From a virus: a stretch of 13,471 bases of DNA. A program made the translations under genes and the position numbers. This document shows positions 5,598 to 10,764 of this stretch, piece by piece; within the stretch, counting starts at the first letter, position 1, and every line of letters starts with the position of its first letter. The stretch lies in the UHGV virus genome UHGV-0358078. One strand, given 5' to 3'. Below the pieces are notes generated by a model. It was not told where the DNA came from. It made no database searches and was given only the letters and a program-made list of their open reading frames with translations.

Positions 5598-6446
5598 ATG
5601 TCTCTTACGTCAAAACAGAAACTGCTAAAACTCATCAACACTGAAAACAATATTAGTCCACCGTTGACTTTCAGTGATGTTGATATCGGAGAACCTACTG
5701 GTACTGGGGTTGATACCCAGGTGGTTCTGACCTCTAAACTCAAAGGCGATGAGTCTACTACTTTAACAGTGACTTACCACCGTCGTAACTTACCTGACTA
5801 CCTAACAGGTGAGTTGGTATTCGGTAACGACAATGTGGTAACCGCATCCGATTTGCTTAATGCGATTAACGCAAAATACAACCTAAATATTTTACCCTCG
5901 GATATCGTTGACGCAAAAGTTGAAGGTGAAACCCATCAGCTTACCGCTAACGAGAAATCTTACGAGTGGTGCGGTGTAGTAACACTTACGCTGCGTGATC
6001 CTATTGACCTGACTGAACTGTTACCAGTTACTCAATTAGAGAATCTGGTAGAGTATCCGTCTACTAAGAAAGGTAACGCTGCGGTTTATTCTCACCCGAT
6101 TGATTTCACCGCAGAAAAAGATTACCTTGACCCGATTACTATCAACGACACCGTCGACTTAGTAGAGTTAGCCACTAAACTGGCTAACGTCGTTGATGAG
6201 AAATGGGTAAGTGTACCTAAAAACGCGGCTAACAACCTGTACGGTGCTAAAGTTATTTACGATGGCCCAACCGCAGGTTACGAAGGCGCAAATACGAAGT
6301 TCACTCGTGTGCTGGTACTGACTCTCAGCCCGTTGTGTTCTAACCTGACCGGTAATCTGTTAATCCACTTTAACGGTACCGATCGTCCGAAGTCGAAGAT
6401 TGAATTAGCACAGACTAATCCGGTCTTACCGGGATTCTTAGATTAA
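5598..6446 (+). CDS. Paralog-family protein (282 aa), possible virion/structural protein
   Basis: First ATG after a 169-nt intergenic region; weak SD (GTGAG). N-terminal ~70 aa (…LINTENNISPPLTFSDVDIGEPTG…TQVVLTSKLKGDESTTLTVTYHRRNL) is colinear with the N-termini of the genes at 6460, 9626 and 10234. T/V/N-rich, acidic composition. The structural role is inference only. Confidence 0.8.
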   Translation: MSLTSKQKLLKLINTENNISPPLTFSDVDIGEPTGTGVDTQVVLTSKLKGDESTTLTVTYHRRNLPDYLTGELVFGNDNVVTASDLLNAINAKYNLNILPSDIVDAKVEGETHQLTANEKSYEWCGVVTLTLRDPIDLTELLPVTQLENLVEYPSTKKGNAAVYSHPIDFTAEKDYLDPITINDTVDLVELATKLANVVDEKWVSVPKNAANNLYGAKVIYDGPTAGYEGANTKFTRVLVLTLSPLCSNLTGNLLIHFNGTDRPKSKIELAQTNPVLPGFLD

Positions 6447-6459
6447 GAGGATTACAGTA

Positions 6460-6957
6460 ATGACCAATCAAGAAACTATCTTCGACCTTATTAAAAAGGC
6501 TAACCCAGACGCTGAGTTCGACACCACCAAGGTCACGCTGGGTGACCCGGTCGTAACCACCGGTACGTACAATACCGAAATCACAGTTGCGTCAATTAAG
6601 AATCTCGGTTACACTAACGAACAAACGTTCCAGTATAACCGCATTGACGCAGGTTTGTATTTCCTGAACGTATTACCGAAACTGTTAGTGGAGTCTGCAA
6701 CGACTACCGCTGACTTACTGCCCGTAATTAACGAACAGTACAGCCTAACCCTTACAGAAGACGATGTATGGGTAGAACAGGTCGGTGAATTACCGCTGGA
6801 CGGCAGTGCAATCGAGCACGGCATTTTCTTCCGTCCTGAATGTTTAACCTGGGTAGGCGGTTTTACGGTGCGCGTTGCACGTAAACCTGCTGAAGATGTT
6901 GAACCTGCGCCAAAAGCAGCTAAAGCACGTACAACTCGTGCACGAAAATCCAAGTAA
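6460..6957 (+). CDS. Paralog-family protein (165 aa) with basic, A/K/R-rich C-terminal tail
   Basis: ATG at 6460 with AAGAGGA upstream. N-terminus (…LIKKANPDAEFDTTKVTLGDPVVT…NTEITVASIKNLGYTNEQTFQYNRID) matches the family motif. C-terminal PAPKAAKARTTRARKSK. Followed by a strong terminator. Confidence 0.8.
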   Translation: MTNQETIFDLIKKANPDAEFDTTKVTLGDPVVTTGTYNTEITVASIKNLGYTNEQTFQYNRIDAGLYFLNVLPKLLVESATTTADLLPVINEQYSLTLTEDDVWVEQVGELPLDGSAIEHGIFFRPECLTWVGGFTVRVARKPAEDVEPAPKAAKARTTRARKSK

Positions 6958-6960
6958 GAT

Positions 6961-6998
6961 TTGGGTGGGGTAAAACCCACCCAACGTTTTTCTTTTTT
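6961..6998 (+). terminator. Intrinsic terminator
   Basis: Perfect 9-bp stem ttgggtggg (6961-6969) / cccacccaa (6976-6984), 6-nt loop, then cgtttttcttttttg. Starts 4 nt after the stop of gene 6460..6957. Confidence 0.85.
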
Positions 6999-7021: not shown

Positions 7022-7612
7022 ATGGCTGAACGTTGGACTAAAGAAGGTATTATTGAAACCAAAACGGATTTAGAAGGCGGGTACGTCAACGACCCTGACG
7101 ACTTAGGTGCAGAAACGAACCACGGTATCACGGTAACGACTGCACGTGAGTACGGTTATAAAGGGAAAATGAAAGACCTTACCCGTGCTCAAGCTTTTGA
7201 CATTTACGATCGTGGTTGGTGGAAGAAACTCAAACTCGATGAGATTTTCGCTATCTCGCCTTTACTGGCTGACCGGATGTTTGATTTCGGAATTAACGCA
7301 GGTCGTGCCAACTGCGTGAAATCGCTACAGCGTATTCTCAACGTGTTGAACAACGAAGGTAAACTCTACGCGGACATCGATGCTGACGGTGGAATGGGGC
7401 CTAAAACGCTGGGTGCGTTGAACGCGTACCTGAAATACCGTAAAGATGAAGGGCTAAGCATTTTAATCTTTGCGTTAATCTCGCACCAAGTAACTTACTA
7501 CACGGAAATCTCCGAGAAACGTAAGCGAAACGAGAAATACACCTACGGCTGGTACGGCCGCGTGTTCAGAGAAATGGCAGATTATGCGGTAAAAGCGGGG
7601 TTAGTAAAATGA
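7022..7612 (+). CDS. Endolysin, GH108-type N-terminal domain plus PG_binding_3-like C-terminal domain
   Basis: ATG at 7022 with GGGAG upstream. N-terminal EGGYVNDPDDLGAETNHGIT matches the GH108 signature (EGGY…DPxD…GGxTxxGIT). Downstream FDFGINAGR…LQRIL…DADGGMGPKTLGAL matches the usual C-terminal peptidoglycan-binding domain of this family. No N-terminal signal or SAR segment. Confidence 0.85.
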   Translation: MAERWTKEGIIETKTDLEGGYVNDPDDLGAETNHGITVTTAREYGYKGKMKDLTRAQAFDIYDRGWWKKLKLDEIFAISPLLADRMFDFGINAGRANCVKSLQRILNVLNNEGKLYADIDADGGMGPKTLGALNAYLKYRKDEGLSILIFALISHQVTYYTEISEKRKRNEKYTYGWYGRVFREMADYAVKAGLVK

Positions 7613-7713
7613 ACTGGTTTGCTAAACTCTTAGCGTTATTGTGGAAAGCGTTAACGTCTGGTCGAAAACGTAAAGACGAAAAACGTGGGCAAGAATTCTT
7701 CTGGTTTTTGTAA
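7609..7713 (+). CDS. Candidate small ORF (34 aa), amphipathic N-terminus and basic centre; not in the ORF track
   Basis: ATG at 7609 overlaps the endolysin stop (ATGA at 7609-7612); GGGG lies 8 nt upstream. Translation MNWFAKLLALLWKALTSGRKRKDEKRGQEFFWFL, stop TAA 7711-7713. Fills the gap between the endolysin and the next gene. Too short for a conventional transmembrane holin. Confidence 0.35.
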   Translation: MNWFAKLLALLWKALTSGRKRKDEKRGQEFFWFL

Positions 7714-7728: not shown

Positions 7729-8394
7729 ATGGAGAAGCTTCAATATAAACGTTTAGATAATAAGTGGTTTGTATTAACGGAGGATTACCATTATCCGTTT
7801 ACGTTACGTGAGATTTATCACGACCACGTACACTTAGACCGTGCGGTTTATTTAACCGGTGTATTACCTGACACGCAACTGTGGTTAACCGCTCCGAAAG
7901 GGTTCGTTACCGATTTAGCGTCAATTCCTGAACACCTCCAGGGAATTTTCCATCCTGACGGACCGTGGGCACCTGCGGCCTGCATTCACGACTTACTCTA
8001 TCAAAAATGTAACACGGAGCGTAGCTATCCCATGACACCGGGTGGTAACGTTTCGCGTATTATCGATAAAGAGTTCTCTGACTTAACATTCCTTCGTATT
8101 ATGCAGTCGTTGGAAATCTCGCCGTATATCTGCCAAACGTTTTATAAAGCCGTGGCGGAGTTCGGTTGGGATGCTTACGTAGACCCTAACGCGAAGCCGT
8201 CTTATACCACTAACGACTACCGTACGTTAGATTACAATCGAAACTATTTGTTCGTTCGCGAGTTTAAGGAACCCGCTATTCCTGACCACGAACGTGTTGA
8301 TATCACCACAGGTTGTCCCGTTAATGTCAAATACCTGAACATCAAACGGGCTTTTCTGTCTGGGAGGGAAGATGTTTCATCCAAATCCGAGTAA
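7729..8394 (+). CDS. DUF1353-like protein (221 aa)
   Basis: ORF track starts at GTG 7720; the in-frame ATG at 7729 follows AAGGAAAGGTG. GFVTDLASIP…ACIHDLLY resembles the (G)xxTDxASIP…HDxxY signature I associate with DUF1353; recalled from memory, not searched. No hydrophobic segment. Confidence 0.7.
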   Translation: MEKLQYKRLDNKWFVLTEDYHYPFTLREIYHDHVHLDRAVYLTGVLPDTQLWLTAPKGFVTDLASIPEHLQGIFHPDGPWAPAACIHDLLYQKCNTERSYPMTPGGNVSRIIDKEFSDLTFLRIMQSLEISPYICQTFYKAVAEFGWDAYVDPNAKPSYTTNDYRTLDYNRNYLFVREFKEPAIPDHERVDITTGCPVNVKYLNIKRAFLSGREDVSSKSE

Positions 8395-8887
8395 CTTTAA
8401 ACTCAAAGAGTTAGTACCACAATCGTACATCGCCAAATACGGTGATTCTGCAATTCGGTTTATGAACCCGTTGTTAATGATTTCGCTACAACAGATTCGT
8501 AACCGTTTCGGCAGAATGGTGATTAACTCCTCTGCTGCGCAACAGCGTGGCCTAAGAACCTTAGACTTTTTCATCAACCAAGAAAAGCCTAAGGGTGGTA
8601 ACTATAAACAACGTGCTTTACAACTCTACTCTGATTCAGGGAGTCAGCACAAGTTCGGTAATGCGTTTGACGCAACGCTTTTAGATTCGACAGTAAAACA
8701 AGTCCACGACTATATCGCCGCTAATCCTGACGAATTTCCGTTCATTCACTTTATCGAATGCGACATCAGTTGGTTACATATCGACGTTCGTAACCAACCG
8801 AATATCACGTTCTGGTCACCGAATCGCGGTACTGTGAAAGTCGTGAAACAAAGCCCTATCGATTGGAGCGCCTTAGTTAAAATCTAA
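8372..8887 (+). CDS. Peptidase M15-like (LAS-type zinc peptidase), putative peptidoglycan peptidase
   Basis: ATG at 8372 directly after GGGAGGG; overlaps the upstream gene by 23 nt. SQHKFGNAFD matches the SxHxxGxAxD zinc-ligand motif of M15/VanY-like peptidases, and WLHIDVR resembles the second His motif (xHVDVR). Followed by a palindrome and a bidirectional terminator. Confidence 0.7.
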   Translation: MFHPNPSNFKLKELVPQSYIAKYGDSAIRFMNPLLMISLQQIRNRFGRMVINSSAAQQRGLRTLDFFINQEKPKGGNYKQRALQLYSDSGSQHKFGNAFDATLLDSTVKQVHDYIAANPDEFPFIHFIECDISWLHIDVRNQPNITFWSPNRGTVKVVKQSPIDWSALVKI

Positions 8888-8978: not shown

Positions 8979-9003
8979 TACCCTCCTGCTAAGCAGGAGG
9001 GTA
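8979..9003. terminator. Bidirectional terminator between convergent genes
   Basis: Stem taccctcctgc (8979-8989) / gcaggagggta (8993-9003) with a 3-5 nt loop. A/T-rich on both sides (aaataaacc upstream, tttattatt downstream), so it is followed by a U-tract in either direction. Confidence 0.75.
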
Positions 9004-9007
9004 TTTA

Positions 9008-9487
9008 TTATTCTACCGGGTGCAGCATAGTTCCGGTGTCTGGGATACTGCCTTCGTGACATCTGAAGAACGTTACGCCTTTACCTTCACCCGTTTTGTA
9101 GTTGACGGTGGAATACGCAAACGTTGGGGTTTTCGACAGTAACCCGTTTACACGGTAATAGCGCTCACCGGTAACGACGTTTAAGTTACCGTCCACCTTA
9201 CCTAACAGGTCTTTATAAAGTTGCGGAGATTCAATTTTACCTTCGTCCCATGTAGCGACCCAATTCGCCCCTGTATCCATGACTAACACCGAAAGGGGCA
9301 TCAGTTTTAGGCTAGACGGTACCGGTTTAAAATCAGCGAATTCTTGAGAAGCACCTGTACAGGTGTAAATGACCATATCGTGTTGGTCAACAGGTACGGT
9401 GGAGAACTGACCTTCTGCGTTCGGCTGAATAGCACAACCTGCCAATGTCATTACAAAAGCAACGACCACGAGAATGCGTTTTAGCAT
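9008..9487 (-). CDS. Predicted outer-membrane lipoprotein (159 aa)
   Basis: N-terminus MLKRILVVVAFVMTLAGC has a basic n-region, hydrophobic core and lipobox L-A-G-C, with Ala at +2 (no Asp retention signal). SD-like GGGTGAG upstream on the minus strand. Opposite in orientation to all neighbouring genes and followed by a bidirectional terminator. Confidence 0.8.
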   Translation of the reverse strand: MLKRILVVVAFVMTLAGCAIQPNAEGQFSTVPVDQHDMVIYTCTGASQEFADFKPVPSSLKLMPLSVLVMDTGANWVATWDEGKIESPQLYKDLLGKVDGNLNVVTGERYYRVNGLLSKTPTFAYSTVNYKTGEGKGVTFFRCHEGSIPDTGTMLHPVE

Positions 9488-9625
9488 AATCTCACCCTTA
9501 TTAAAATTAAGAAAAATTATTTTTTCAGGTTAGCGCCTACTGCCAACCGTCATATCTATATTTTAGGAAATGTCTAAAATAACTTTCTTATGCAATCCAC
9601 CCCTACCACTTACGAGGTAAAAAAG
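9488..9625. promoter_or_regulatory. Divergent intergenic region, probable promoter region for the lipoprotein gene (minus) and gene 9626 (plus)
   Basis: 138-nt AT-rich gap between divergently oriented starts. On the minus strand, TTGGCA (plus-strand tgccaa 9541-9546) is followed about 17 nt later by an A-rich -10-like hexamer. This is a weak match, not a confident sigma-70 promoter. Confidence 0.3.
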
Positions 9626-10162
9626 ATGGCTAAAGCCTTCAAACAACAGCTCATCGAAGCTGTAATTGCTAAAAACTCAGACACCGCTTCTAATCTGACG
9701 GTTGGTGATGTCGATTTTGGCGCTGTTGCTGAGTTCAGCGGAGACGCTGGTCGTAACACCAAAATTACGCTGACCGCCAAGGCAGAAAGCCAGAACTTCA
9801 AAGGCGAGAAAGAATTCCATTATATCCGTCTGGCTTCTCAAGACCTGATCGGTGCCAAAGCTTACGAACAAGCCGGTAGCCTCGAACTGGAAAACTCGGT
9901 CATTGTAACCAAACTGAACGAAGAAATGGTTACTAAAGGTTATGTCGATGACGAGTTTGCAGAGAGCGAACTGTCCATTGAGAAAACTGACGGGGATAGT
10001 GGTGCTAAAGTTTACACTGTCAAAGTAAGCGAAGGCCACATCAAATTCCTGGCTGGTACCATTGCCACCTTCACTTATTCCAACCCAGCTCCTGAGAAGG
10101 TAGCTCTGGACGGTCTGGAAGGTGAACTTGATGGCTTTACTGCACCGGGTGTCGGTGGCTAA
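9626..10162 (+). CDS. Paralog-family protein (178 aa), possible virion/structural protein
   Basis: ORF track starts at ATG 9590 with no SD. The in-frame ATG at 9626 has GAGG with an 8-nt spacer and gives an N-terminus colinear with the paralog at 10234 (MAKAFKQQLIEAVIAKN… vs MAATNQMMLVALYNAAN…). Both end in ELDGFTA. Followed by a G12-containing hairpin. Confidence 0.8.
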   Translation: MAKAFKQQLIEAVIAKNSDTASNLTVGDVDFGAVAEFSGDAGRNTKITLTAKAESQNFKGEKEFHYIRLASQDLIGAKAYEQAGSLELENSVIVTKLNEEMVTKGYVDDEFAESELSIEKTDGDSGAKVYTVKVSEGHIKFLAGTIATFTYSNPAPEKVALDGLEGELDGFTAPGVGG

Positions 10163-10171
10163 GTAAATTAA

Positions 10172-10198
10172 ATCGGGGGGGGGGGGACCTCCCCCGAT
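10172..10198 (+). terminator. Terminator-like hairpin containing a G12 homopolymer
   Basis: atcgggggggg (10172-10182) pairs with cctcccccgat (10188-10198), one G-U pair; followed by atttctc…tattttt. Starts 10 nt after the stop of gene 9626..10162. Confidence 0.6.
10175..10186. repeat. G12 homopolymer tract
   Basis: Twelve consecutive G at 10175-10186, inside the hairpin after gene 9626..10162. Confidence 0.9.
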
Positions 10199-10233
10199 AT
10201 TTCTCTAACTCGTATTTTTAAGGACCTAAGATA

Positions 10234-10764
10234 ATGGCCGCTACTAACCAGATGATGTTGGTCGCGCTTTATAATGCTGCTAACACTGAGCTACCACATC
10301 AGATTACTGATAAAGAAGTGTCCTTTGGTCTCCCTACTGCGCTGGAAGGCGAAAGTAAGAATACCAAAGTTACCATGACTGCACTACCGGGTTCTGAGAA
10401 TTTCAAAGGCGAAATCGAACTGCATTACGATCGTCTGGAGCCAGGTGTTGTAGGGCGTATTGAACTAACTGACGATCTGTCTCGTTGGGAAGATCAAAAC
10501 GAATTGCGCGCATGGTTACAATATTACATTAATAAAGTTAAACCGGACGATGCTATTCATCCAGCGGACGTTTCTTATTCTACCGAAGACCAGAAAGACG
10601 AACATGAAAACGTCACTCTGCGTACCGTGACGTGCACCGTTACCGAAAAGAACCTCCGTTATAAACCAGGTGTAATGGCAACTTTCGTAATTACACCGAA
10701 GGTTGTTGATAATCGTATTGACCTGGCCACCACCAACGGTGAGTTGGACGGTTTTACTGCTTAA
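10234..10764 (+). CDS. Paralog-family protein (176 aa), possible virion/structural protein
   Basis: ATG at 10234 with AAGGA 9 nt upstream. Shares the family motifs (…VSFGLPTALEGESKNTKVTMTALPGSENFKGEIELHYDRL…) and the C-terminal GELDGFTA. Followed by an 11-bp bidirectional terminator. Confidence 0.8.
   Translation: MAATNQMMLVALYNAANTELPHQITDKEVSFGLPTALEGESKNTKVTMTALPGSENFKGEIELHYDRLEPGVVGRIELTDDLSRWEDQNELRAWLQYYINKVKPDDAIHPADVSYSTEDQKDEHENVTLRTVTCTVTEKNLRYKPGVMATFVITPKVVDNRIDLATTNGELDGFTA

Follow-up and report, generated by a model that had tools for sequence, protein, structure and literature searches.

A conserved 34-codon micro-gene overlapping the endolysin stop codon of an uncultured jumbo phage and its putative role in lysis

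Results

This report concerns a 34-codon open reading frame (ORF) on the plus strand of UHGV virus genome UHGV-0358078, of which a stretch of 13,471 nt (the window) was analyzed. The ORF, at positions 7609-7713, sits between an endolysin gene (7022-7612) and a gene for a DUF1353 protein (7729-8394), and its product is referred to here as the NWF peptide. An earlier note on the window had described an ATG at 7609 that overlaps the endolysin TGA as ATGA and opens a 34-aa frame with a Trp/Leu-rich N terminus and a GRKRKDEKRG center, filling the gap before the next gene; the coordinates and the translation (MNWFAKLLALLWKALTSGRKRKDEKRGQEFFWFL) are confirmed exactly, as are both sequence features and the position in the gap. 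The endolysin gene ends in ...GTA AAA TGA, and the last A of its final Lys codon together with the TG of the stop makes up the ATG of the NWF gene, which places the start codon at 7609-7611, the endolysin stop at 7610-7612, and the NWF stop codon, TAA, at 7711-7713. The latter lies 15 nt before the start of the DUF1353 gene at 7729, without overlap between the two. A Shine-Dalgarno-like element, GGGG, is found at 7597-7600 on the plus strand, 8 nt 5' of the ATG and within the endolysin coding sequence.

At least 34 codons stay open in 7.8% of shuffles of the gap, which is not significant. The length of the frame being unremarkable in itself, the case for a gene rests on comparative evidence, and it is conservation that raises the ORF above chance. 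No near-identical DNA was found among cultured phages, and the lineage of the window—a widespread uncultured jumbo phage—is known from metagenomes only. Five IMG/VR contigs of 107-225 kb encode an endolysin 90-99% identical to that of the window, and all five keep both the intact 34-codon frame and the ATGA overlap. Between the window and its most diverged relative (L010), there are nine synonymous and two non-synonymous differences in the ORF frame (proportions pS 0.45 and pN 0.024; Fisher p 3e-6). The resulting pN/pS ratio of 0.05 compares with 0.75-1.3 in the two other frames, and with 0.08 and 0.07 in the flanking endolysin and DUF1353 genes. The exact 34-aa peptide is encoded on 397 public contigs (accessions DAH66011.1 and DAY64749.1, "MAG TPA: hypothetical protein, Caudoviricetes sp."), and its 90% cluster comprises 39 variants, all of them 34 aa long. 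As a separate observation, the small ORF is the most conserved nucleotide stretch when the window is compared with the relatives L006-L010: 16 of 510 bases differ, against 296 of 2935 in the endolysin gene and 174 of 3315 in the DUF1353 gene. In L007, the ORF is identical to that of the window while both flanks are ~8-9% different. Mosaic recombination whose breakpoints flank the ORF could explain this, as could an additional constraint on the sequence.

The NWF gene extends beyond the lineage of the window. Window proteins share 60-67% identity with their counterparts in giant enterobacterial myoviruses—SPN3US (Seoulvirus) and Asesino and phiEaH2 (Erskinevirus)—and gene order is kept. An NWF peptide occupies the same slot in the Erwinia phage Asesino (gp172, YP_009290790.1; MKTNWFVTLMRAVGRALLFALRRKRHEKPEGGKA), in phiEaH2 (gp076) and Stratton (Stratton_173), where position and overlap are the same, and in SPN3US and its relatives (MKQNWFAALMKAIWRALVFAARRKRNDPPSNSA). 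In all clades the NWF start and the endolysin stop share bases within an ATGA or GTGA sequence—the gene starts with GTG in STsAS and pEa_SNUABM_29—and in every clade a G-rich element (GGGG, GGGA, or AGGAG) lies 8-10 nt 5' of the start. The signature of selection is again specific for this frame: pS is 0.77 and pN 0.09 between Asesino and STsAS, and SPN3US and SPFM4 differ by four synonymous and no non-synonymous changes, with no comparable signal out of frame in either pair. The ORF is thus intact in all of the close relatives as well as in two other genera; synonymous changes are in excess in this frame only, and the ORF does not show the interruption or loss of frame that the earlier note had named as grounds for abandoning it.

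The family is narrow. Its members share an N-W-F helix start, an L..A....AL pattern, a basic RRKR or RKRK motif, a length of 33-39 aa, and an [A/G]TGA overlap with a GH108 endolysin. A profile search of the family recovers the cluster of the window at E 3.6e-13 and, among 5.8 billion proteins, finds six 90% clusters only, all in the same three clades. A search of 1.84 billion representatives with the single peptide returned its own cluster only, tblastn with the peptide gave no match in phage genomes, probably owing to the low-complexity filter, and Pfam, PHROGs, NCBIfam, PDB profiles, and Rfam hold no family that matches the peptide. The description of the ORF as unannotated holds for the RefSeq record of SPN3US, where the NWF gene is absent, and fails elsewhere, since Asesino gp172, phiEaH2 gp076, the Stratton protein, DAH66011.1, and DAY64749.1 are all in the databases as hypothetical proteins.

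Two alternatives to a functional coding sequence can be weighed against these data. An RNA-structure explanation was rejected: the fold z-score of 0.42 is no better than that of shuffles, and Rfam gives no match for the small-ORF region. The other alternative holds that the sequence of the peptide is irrelevant, either because the ORF is translated only to carry ribosomes to the DUF1353 gene or because it is a chance ORF. Such an open length does occur in ~8% of shuffles, but purifying selection is frame specific within and between genera, the amphipathic pattern described below is conserved, and a gap of 15 nt, with no overlap, separates the ORF from the next start. We regard this alternative as largely refuted and extremely improbable. 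Taken together, we are highly confident that ORF 7609-7713 is a translated micro-gene.

The overlap between the two genes bears on how the peptide is made. The earlier note had proposed translational coupling to the endolysin; conservation across clades of both the overlap and the Shine-Dalgarno-like element fits this proposal, and expression of the NWF gene is probably explained most simply by termination-reinitiation. A quite different use of the same junction would be −1 slippage at A_AAA_TGA, yielding an endolysin with a cationic amphipathic C-terminal tail and leaving the free peptide as a by-product. Many Gram-negative endolysins have cationic amphipathic C-terminal helices, and in the window the tRNA-Lys on AAA can re-pair one base back, the next codons being ATG-AAC-TGG. 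However, the run of four A's is confined to the clade of the window (the others have C_AAA_TGA or T_AAG_TGA), there is neither a heptameric slippery site nor a stimulatory RNA structure, and no natural in-frame endolysin-peptide fusion occurs among the 5.8 billion proteins. The frameshift idea is weakened accordingly, and conservation of the start codon and of the Shine-Dalgarno-like element also speaks against it, which leaves it with a very small probability.

The peptide combines three segments. Residues 2-18 (NWFAKLLALLWKALTSG; 7612-7662) are predicted to form an amphipathic helix whose cationic stripe (N2, K6, K13) is narrow and whose hydrophobic face is wide. Residues 19-26 (7663-7686) make up a polybasic cluster, RKRKDEKR, which is RRKR in Erskinevirus and Seoulvirus, and residues 29-34 (7693-7710) an aromatic hydrophobic tail, EFFWFL, that is found in the lineage of the window only, the tails of the other clades being polar. 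An AlphaFold (AF2) model shows one helix spanning residues 4-33 (pLDDT, the predicted local distance difference test score, 74). Residues 2-18 have a mean hydrophobicity of 0.39 and a hydrophobic moment of 0.45, which only 0.02% of shuffles reach (p 0.0002), and across clades the 18-residue moment is 0.45-0.61. On a helical wheel, polar and cationic residues fall within a sector of ~60 degrees, the remainder being Trp, Phe, Leu, and Ala. Six residues (N, W, F, L7, A14, and L15) do not vary when the clades are aligned. In the other clades the basic residues occupy shifted sequence positions yet the same face (340-40 degrees), as predicted by selection for amphipathicity. Net charge is +5 in the window and +6 or +7 in the other clades. 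There is no signal sequence in the peptide and no cysteine, hence no lipobox of the kind that marks spanin lipoproteins. Taking a Kyte-Doolittle 18-residue mean of 1.6 as the threshold for a transmembrane domain (TMD), which is a simple scale rather than a dedicated predictor, the maximum reaches 0.78 for the peptide of the window and 1.08-1.22 for those of the other clades. The earlier view of an amphipathic, basic peptide too short for a typical holin is therefore borne out.

What occupies the space between the GH108 endolysin and the next gene in other phages is informative. In Erskinevirus and Seoulvirus, the NWF gene is followed in another frame by a second micro-gene, ORF2, with a core GFFK[LM]LRAIF.RRV predicted to form a cationic amphipathic helix, and in Seoulvirus only, the slot also holds a third, ATGA-coupled to ORF2, for a 30-aa protein with DNDDWP and a TMD. 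Both ORF2 and ORF3 are under frame-specific purifying selection, and the resemblance of the ORF2 helix to that of NWF suggests tandem duplication. ORF2 starts within the 3' end of the NWF gene, and ORF3 encodes 29-30 aa and is ATGA-coupled to ORF2 in STsAS and SNUABM_29 (ORF2 and ORF3 lie at L002:2164-2316 and 2274-2366 in SPN3US, L047:890-985 and 982-1074 in STsAS, and L048:906-1001 and 998-1087, and a site in Asesino at L001:2158-2241); their annotation is patchy. Machinavirus (Caitlin, ChrisDB, Huxley, and SNUABM_8/9) has no NWF gene in the slot and instead a single protein of 38-52 aa that carries an acidic DDDPPP motif and has its TMD at the C terminus. The halves of one example (MQKPVPPVFPEVQVIREDYKFFDDDDPPPIVLWGCMVGMLVLSLIKVLS; the loci are L023-L025, L028, L051, and L052) match SPN3US ORF2, in its N-terminal part, and ORF3. 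In a fourth jumbo lineage (L076:2391-2504, on a 248-kb contig), the slot holds a 37-aa single-TMD protein, MQKTEAAVQEKPAVIQQGLGAVALVLFISRLFGKVKQ, whose stop overlaps the DUF1353 start. The single-TMD micro-proteins of these sister slots have Kyte-Doolittle maxima of 1.73-2.27. More distant GH108 loci have multi-TMD holin-like proteins or a pair of inner-membrane and outer-membrane spanins (i-spanin and o-spanin), with the same kind of stop/start overlap. The idea that the endolysin always brings the NWF ORF was rejected, since in Cronobacter CR9/CR3, where the enzyme is 66-67% identical, the slot is empty and phoH follows directly, the spanin being encoded elsewhere. Judged by its contents across lineages, the space after the GH108 endolysin appears to be a place for membrane-acting lysis partners.

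The same evidence can be read without a membrane role for NWF. The peptide might time lysis or act as an endolysin partner, binding the endolysin, the putative phospholipase A2 (PLA2)-like DUF1353 enzyme, or a holin from another locus—as antiholin, activator, tether, or inhibitor—without membrane damage. The conserved arrangement would give cotranslation with the endolysin at a fixed ratio, lineages with the same enzyme can do without the peptide, and in phiKZ a non-membrane lysis regulator, gp143, adjoins the endolysin (PMC12894885). What is conserved, however, is a physicochemical pattern (hydrophobic face, cationic stripe, RRKR) rather than a specific surface, with six invariant residues, and this is more typical of lipid binding, so that we consider a regulator of this type unlikely.

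The NWF gene belongs to a short transcription unit. A hairpin with a T-run resembling an intrinsic terminator (6961-6984, plus strand; 9-bp stem with 6 GC pairs and a T tail) lies 5' of the endolysin gene and is predicted to mark the start of a separate unit, and a bidirectional terminator hairpin at 8979-9003 (11-bp stem with 7 GC pairs and T-runs on both strands) closes this unit as well as a convergent lipoprotein gene. Between the two hairpins are the genes for the endolysin, the NWF peptide, the DUF1353 protein, and an M15-like peptidase candidate. The endolysin (196 aa) consists of Glyco_hydro_108 and PG_binding_3 domains (Pfam E 8e-22 and 5e-17; PHROG 315, "endolysin"), is 63-67% identical to the enzymes of SPN3US, Asesino, phiEaH2, and Cronobacter CR9, belongs to the same family as the Salmonella Typhi muramidase TtsA, and has no signal or signal-arrest-release (SAR) sequence. 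The last gene (8372-8887, plus strand; 171 aa), which overlaps the DUF1353 gene by 23 nt, carries SxHxxGxAxD and HxD motifs (SQHKFGNAFD and HIDV), with a weak match to Pfam M15_3 (E 0.03) and an "endolysin" label in PHROG 894; its product would be a second peptidoglycan hydrolase of the same operon. The convergent gene (9008-9487, minus strand) encodes a 159-aa lipoprotein (MLKRILVVVAFVMTLAGC…; PHROG 9559) homologous to SPN3US ACQ60_gp107, which has no C-terminal TMD and is therefore not a unimolecular spanin (u-spanin). Four DUF7941 paralogs, of a virion structural family related to phiKZ gp131 and SPN3US gp168, flank the unit at 5598-6957 and 9590-10764, and the lysis-type operon is thus embedded in an array of structural paralogs.

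This setting raises the question of a role outside lysis, in which the NWF peptide would be a membrane-targeted protein for superinfection exclusion, host takeover, or tail/baseplate assembly that is merely carried in the operon. The DUF7941 virion-protein paralogs on both sides would fit such a role, as would the trace amounts in SPN3US virions of gp158, the homolog of the last gene product (PMC5105663), and the PHROG label of the DUF1353 gene, "tail assembly chaperone". That label is nonetheless at odds with the experimentally established PLA2 activity of the founding DUF1353 protein, the texts searched do not name the GH108 protein among the virion proteins of SPN3US, and the tight overlap of NWF with the endolysin persists from one genus to another. 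A non-lysis role is in our estimation quite unlikely. The SPN3US proteomics texts mention neither gp156 nor the small ORFs and are uninformative in this respect.

The DUF1353 protein (7729-8394, plus strand; 221 aa) is probably PLA2-like. In an alignment of 47 sequences, H87, D88, and D118 are invariant and Y91 nearly so, which corresponds to the HDxxY motif and distal Asp of the secreted PLA2 (sPLA2) signature. The AlphaFold model from this alignment (pLDDT 91.7) has no Foldseek match in the PDB and weak matches in BFVD to phage "phospholipase A2" and parvovirus VP proteins. The Pfam match, the His-Asp motif with distal Asp, and a helical core like that of group XIV sPLA2 are those of the TtaP type. 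TtaP, a DUF1353 protein of 125 aa, is encoded alongside the GH108 muramidase TtsA in the typhoid-toxin islet of S. Typhi; its PLA2 activity needs the Asp of the dyad, and its HHpred matches are 1LWB and 4AUP (PMC11525133). The DUF1353 family thus has a PLA2 as its founding member, and from these homologies the operon would read muramidase, cationic peptide, PLA2-like enzyme, and M15-like peptidase.

Whether these phages have spanins is important for the interpretation of a small cationic peptide. A lipobox scan covering every frame of the assembled SPN3US genome identified ACQ60_gp061, a lipoprotein of 159 aa (LLLTGC). Before it comes gp062, whose product combines a TMD at the N terminus with a coiled coil and a tail rich in Pro. 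The two have homologs in 73 phages, Asesino, phiEaH2, Caitlin, and Cronobacter CR5 among them, and the CR5 matches fall within the genes curated by Kongari et al. as the separated two-component spanin of that phage. The notion of spaninless phages that would need a disruptin was rejected on this basis for SPN3US and Erskinevirus, and since SPN3US, Asesino, and phiEaH2 carry a spanin pair, mere replacement of a spanin cannot account for the origin of the NWF family. The lineage of the window keeps both the i-spanin and the o-spanin gene of the SPN3US/CR5 type (L065, L066, L067, and L072, at ~2266-2724 in each, from the same IMG/VR contigs as the closest relatives). In all four contigs, the o-spanin homolog has an ordinary signal peptide (…VGLVSNSYG|DE…) and no lipobox cysteine (MKMLLFIMVVFVGLVSNSYGDEV… or MKSLLFIMILCVGLVSNGYGEPG…), whereas the L-x-[GA]-C motif is kept in SPN3US, Asesino, phiEaH2, Caitlin, ChrisDB, and Huxley. 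The outer-membrane lipid anchor of the o-spanin thus appears to be lost in this lineage, and we speculate that outer-membrane work may have shifted there to the EFFWFL-tailed peptide.

The main rival explanation is a disruptin proper—a gp28-type peptide weakening the outer membrane at the last step of lysis and replacing or backing up the spanin. The peptide satisfies the published thresholds (<80 aa, net charge at least +4) and has a predicted amphipathic helix, its gene overlaps the endolysin end exactly as phiKT 28 does, the spanin of the window's own lineage may be crippled, and the extra aromatic tail is found in that lineage. Against this, NWF coexists with an intact CR5-type i-spanin and a lipobox-bearing o-spanin in SPN3US, Asesino, and phiEaH2, the peptide has no similarity to gp28 (best E 13), and its slot partners in related lineages are integral inner-membrane micro-proteins. 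On balance we find a true disruptin doubtful, albeit slightly less so than a regulator.

Other candidate lysis genes are present in SPN3US, whose annotation contains no gene labeled holin. At 175058-176688 of NC_027402.1, a transglycosylase whose N terminus bears a signal or SAR-like segment (gp068) lies beside gp066, an 86-aa two-TMD protein with a basic tail encoded ~3 kb upstream of the spanin pair, and five tiny TM proteins cluster at 171400-172092. The gp066/gp068 region and this cluster are candidates for a second, phiKZ-like lysis region.

Discussion

Lysis of enterobacterial hosts by giant phages is largely uncharted, and the lysis cassette of phiKZ was dissected only in 2026 (PMC12894885). 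In this report we describe a conserved and easily testable micro-gene family, shared by SPN3US, Erskinevirus, and uncultured gut jumbo phages, which was found through its conservation and its position beside the endolysin. The explanation that we favor, with moderate confidence, is that the NWF peptide perturbs membranes as an accessory to lysis and is produced in step with the endolysin. Ribosomes ending on the endolysin stop would reinitiate at the overlapping ATG, so that the peptide would be made with the enzyme late in infection. It would bind to the inner membrane on its anionic cytoplasmic side and, upon accumulation, perturb the bilayer, which would help the signal-less GH108 muramidase and the PLA2-like DUF1353 enzyme to reach and destroy the envelope. 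The peptide would then act as an accessory of the holin or disruptin type and might also serve as a membrane "primer" for the phospholipase. Action on the inner membrane from the cytoplasm is favored because the endolysin has no export signal, the micro-proteins in the sister slots are inner-membrane proteins, and spanins are present. The earlier suggestion of a lysis regulator or membrane-active peptide is strengthened by the contents of the slot and by the PLA2-family neighbor, and a part for this individual peptide as a lysis factor is plausible.

Several points weigh against this interpretation. SPN3US has other holin candidates, such as the 86-aa two-TMD protein at 175-177 kb, and phiKZ uses a class III holin with a soluble regulator (PMC12894885). 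The NWF peptide is dispensable in some lineages with the same enzyme. Moreover, bulk properties like these occur in ~1.5% of random small ORFs, a rough background rate only, since the peptide of the window itself just misses, through rounding, the threshold of 0.45 used for the count.

A bolder version of the lysis-accessory explanation can be formulated, which we offer tentatively and think improbable as a whole, although somewhat less so than any of the alternatives above. In SPN3US-like phages, the muramidase, a melittin-like micro-protein, and the DUF1353 PLA2 would make up an unrecognized envelope-breaching module in which a TMD-less peptide opens the membrane like a holin and/or primes the bilayer. 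The slot would be a cassette exchanging amphipathic-cationic and single-TMD micro-proteins, and the peptide of the window's lineage may also disrupt the outer membrane.

These considerations matter beyond the phages themselves. The NWF slot lies between a GH108 muramidase and a DUF1353/PLA2 protein, enzymes that Salmonella Typhi has co-opted for typhoid-toxin release, and the module of muramidase, cationic micro-protein, and DUF1353/PLA2 would link giant-phage lysis to that release system. If the peptide is the perturbing agent of the phage, the logic of the ancestral module would be explained and a phospholipase-assisted route of lysis indicated. It would also provide a membrane-active peptide of 34 residues that is genetically tractable and of interest to the engineering of endolysins against Gram-negative bacteria. 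Even as a minor accessory, it entails an annotation correction for dozens of Seoulvirus genomes.

Comparison with known systems helps to place the NWF peptide. In S. Typhi, TtsA alone is insufficient for toxin release, and membrane-perturbing agents such as cationic antimicrobial peptides are required (PMC11525133). The likeness to the TtsA-TtaP islet is that a GH108/PG_binding_3 muramidase is encoded together with a DUF1353 protein in the phage as well. The differences are that the perturbing agent is thought to be host derived in S. Typhi, whereas the phage encodes a candidate between the two genes, and that the DUF1353 protein has 221 aa in the phage as against 125 aa in the islet, for which no small ORF has been reported.

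In bee venom, melittin is paired with a PLA2 that it potentiates, and the NWF gene likewise adjoins a PLA2-like gene. Both peptides have a hydrophobic amphipathic helix of ~18-20 residues with few charges followed by K/R-K-R-K, with comparable moment and net charge. This is a likeness of architecture without homology, and NWF, which lacks the Gly-Pro kink, is made inside the cell and would act from the cytoplasmic face. Synergy between peptide and phospholipase as in the venom is a functional analogy and not evidence.

Among phage proteins, the closest parallel is the disruptin gp28 of phiKT, a 56-aa amphipathic peptide of charge +7 that replaces the spanin in a phage without a lipoprotein gene (10.1101/515445). 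This is the only disruptin family demonstrated so far, and its authors, who screened for proteins of <80 aa with a net charge of at least +4, expected others to be hard to find computationally (10.1101/515445). Like gp28, NWF is small and cationic (+5 to +7), is predicted to form an amphipathic helix, and lacks both a signal sequence and a lipobox; its gene comes directly after that of the endolysin, whose 3' end it overlaps (by 8 nt for phiKT 28 and by ATGA for NWF). It thus has the size, charge, helix, and endolysin-adjacent position of disruptins. NWF differs from gp28 in its length of 34 aa and in its sequence, the best blastp match having E 13 over 16 residues, and its helix is more hydrophobic (mean H 0.39, versus −0.1 for the best segment of gp28). 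In addition, the NWF phages are giant myoviruses with a spanin pair, whereas phiKT is spaninless.

With holins and other small single-TMD proteins of lysis cassettes—for example, in the phiKZ gp142 cassette (PMC12894885)—NWF shares proximity to the endolysin gene, small size, and a hydrophobic segment followed by a charged C terminus, here the basic RKRKDEKR/RRKR region, and its slot holds true single-TMD micro-proteins in sister lineages. Unlike them, it has no segment of TM grade, carries two basic residues inside the helix, and is only half as large as the smallest holins that have been well studied. Since NWF departs from disruptins in its spanin-bearing phages and in lacking homology to gp28, and from holins in lacking a TMD, the peptide is best viewed as a putative variant of the known phage membrane-active lysis peptides.

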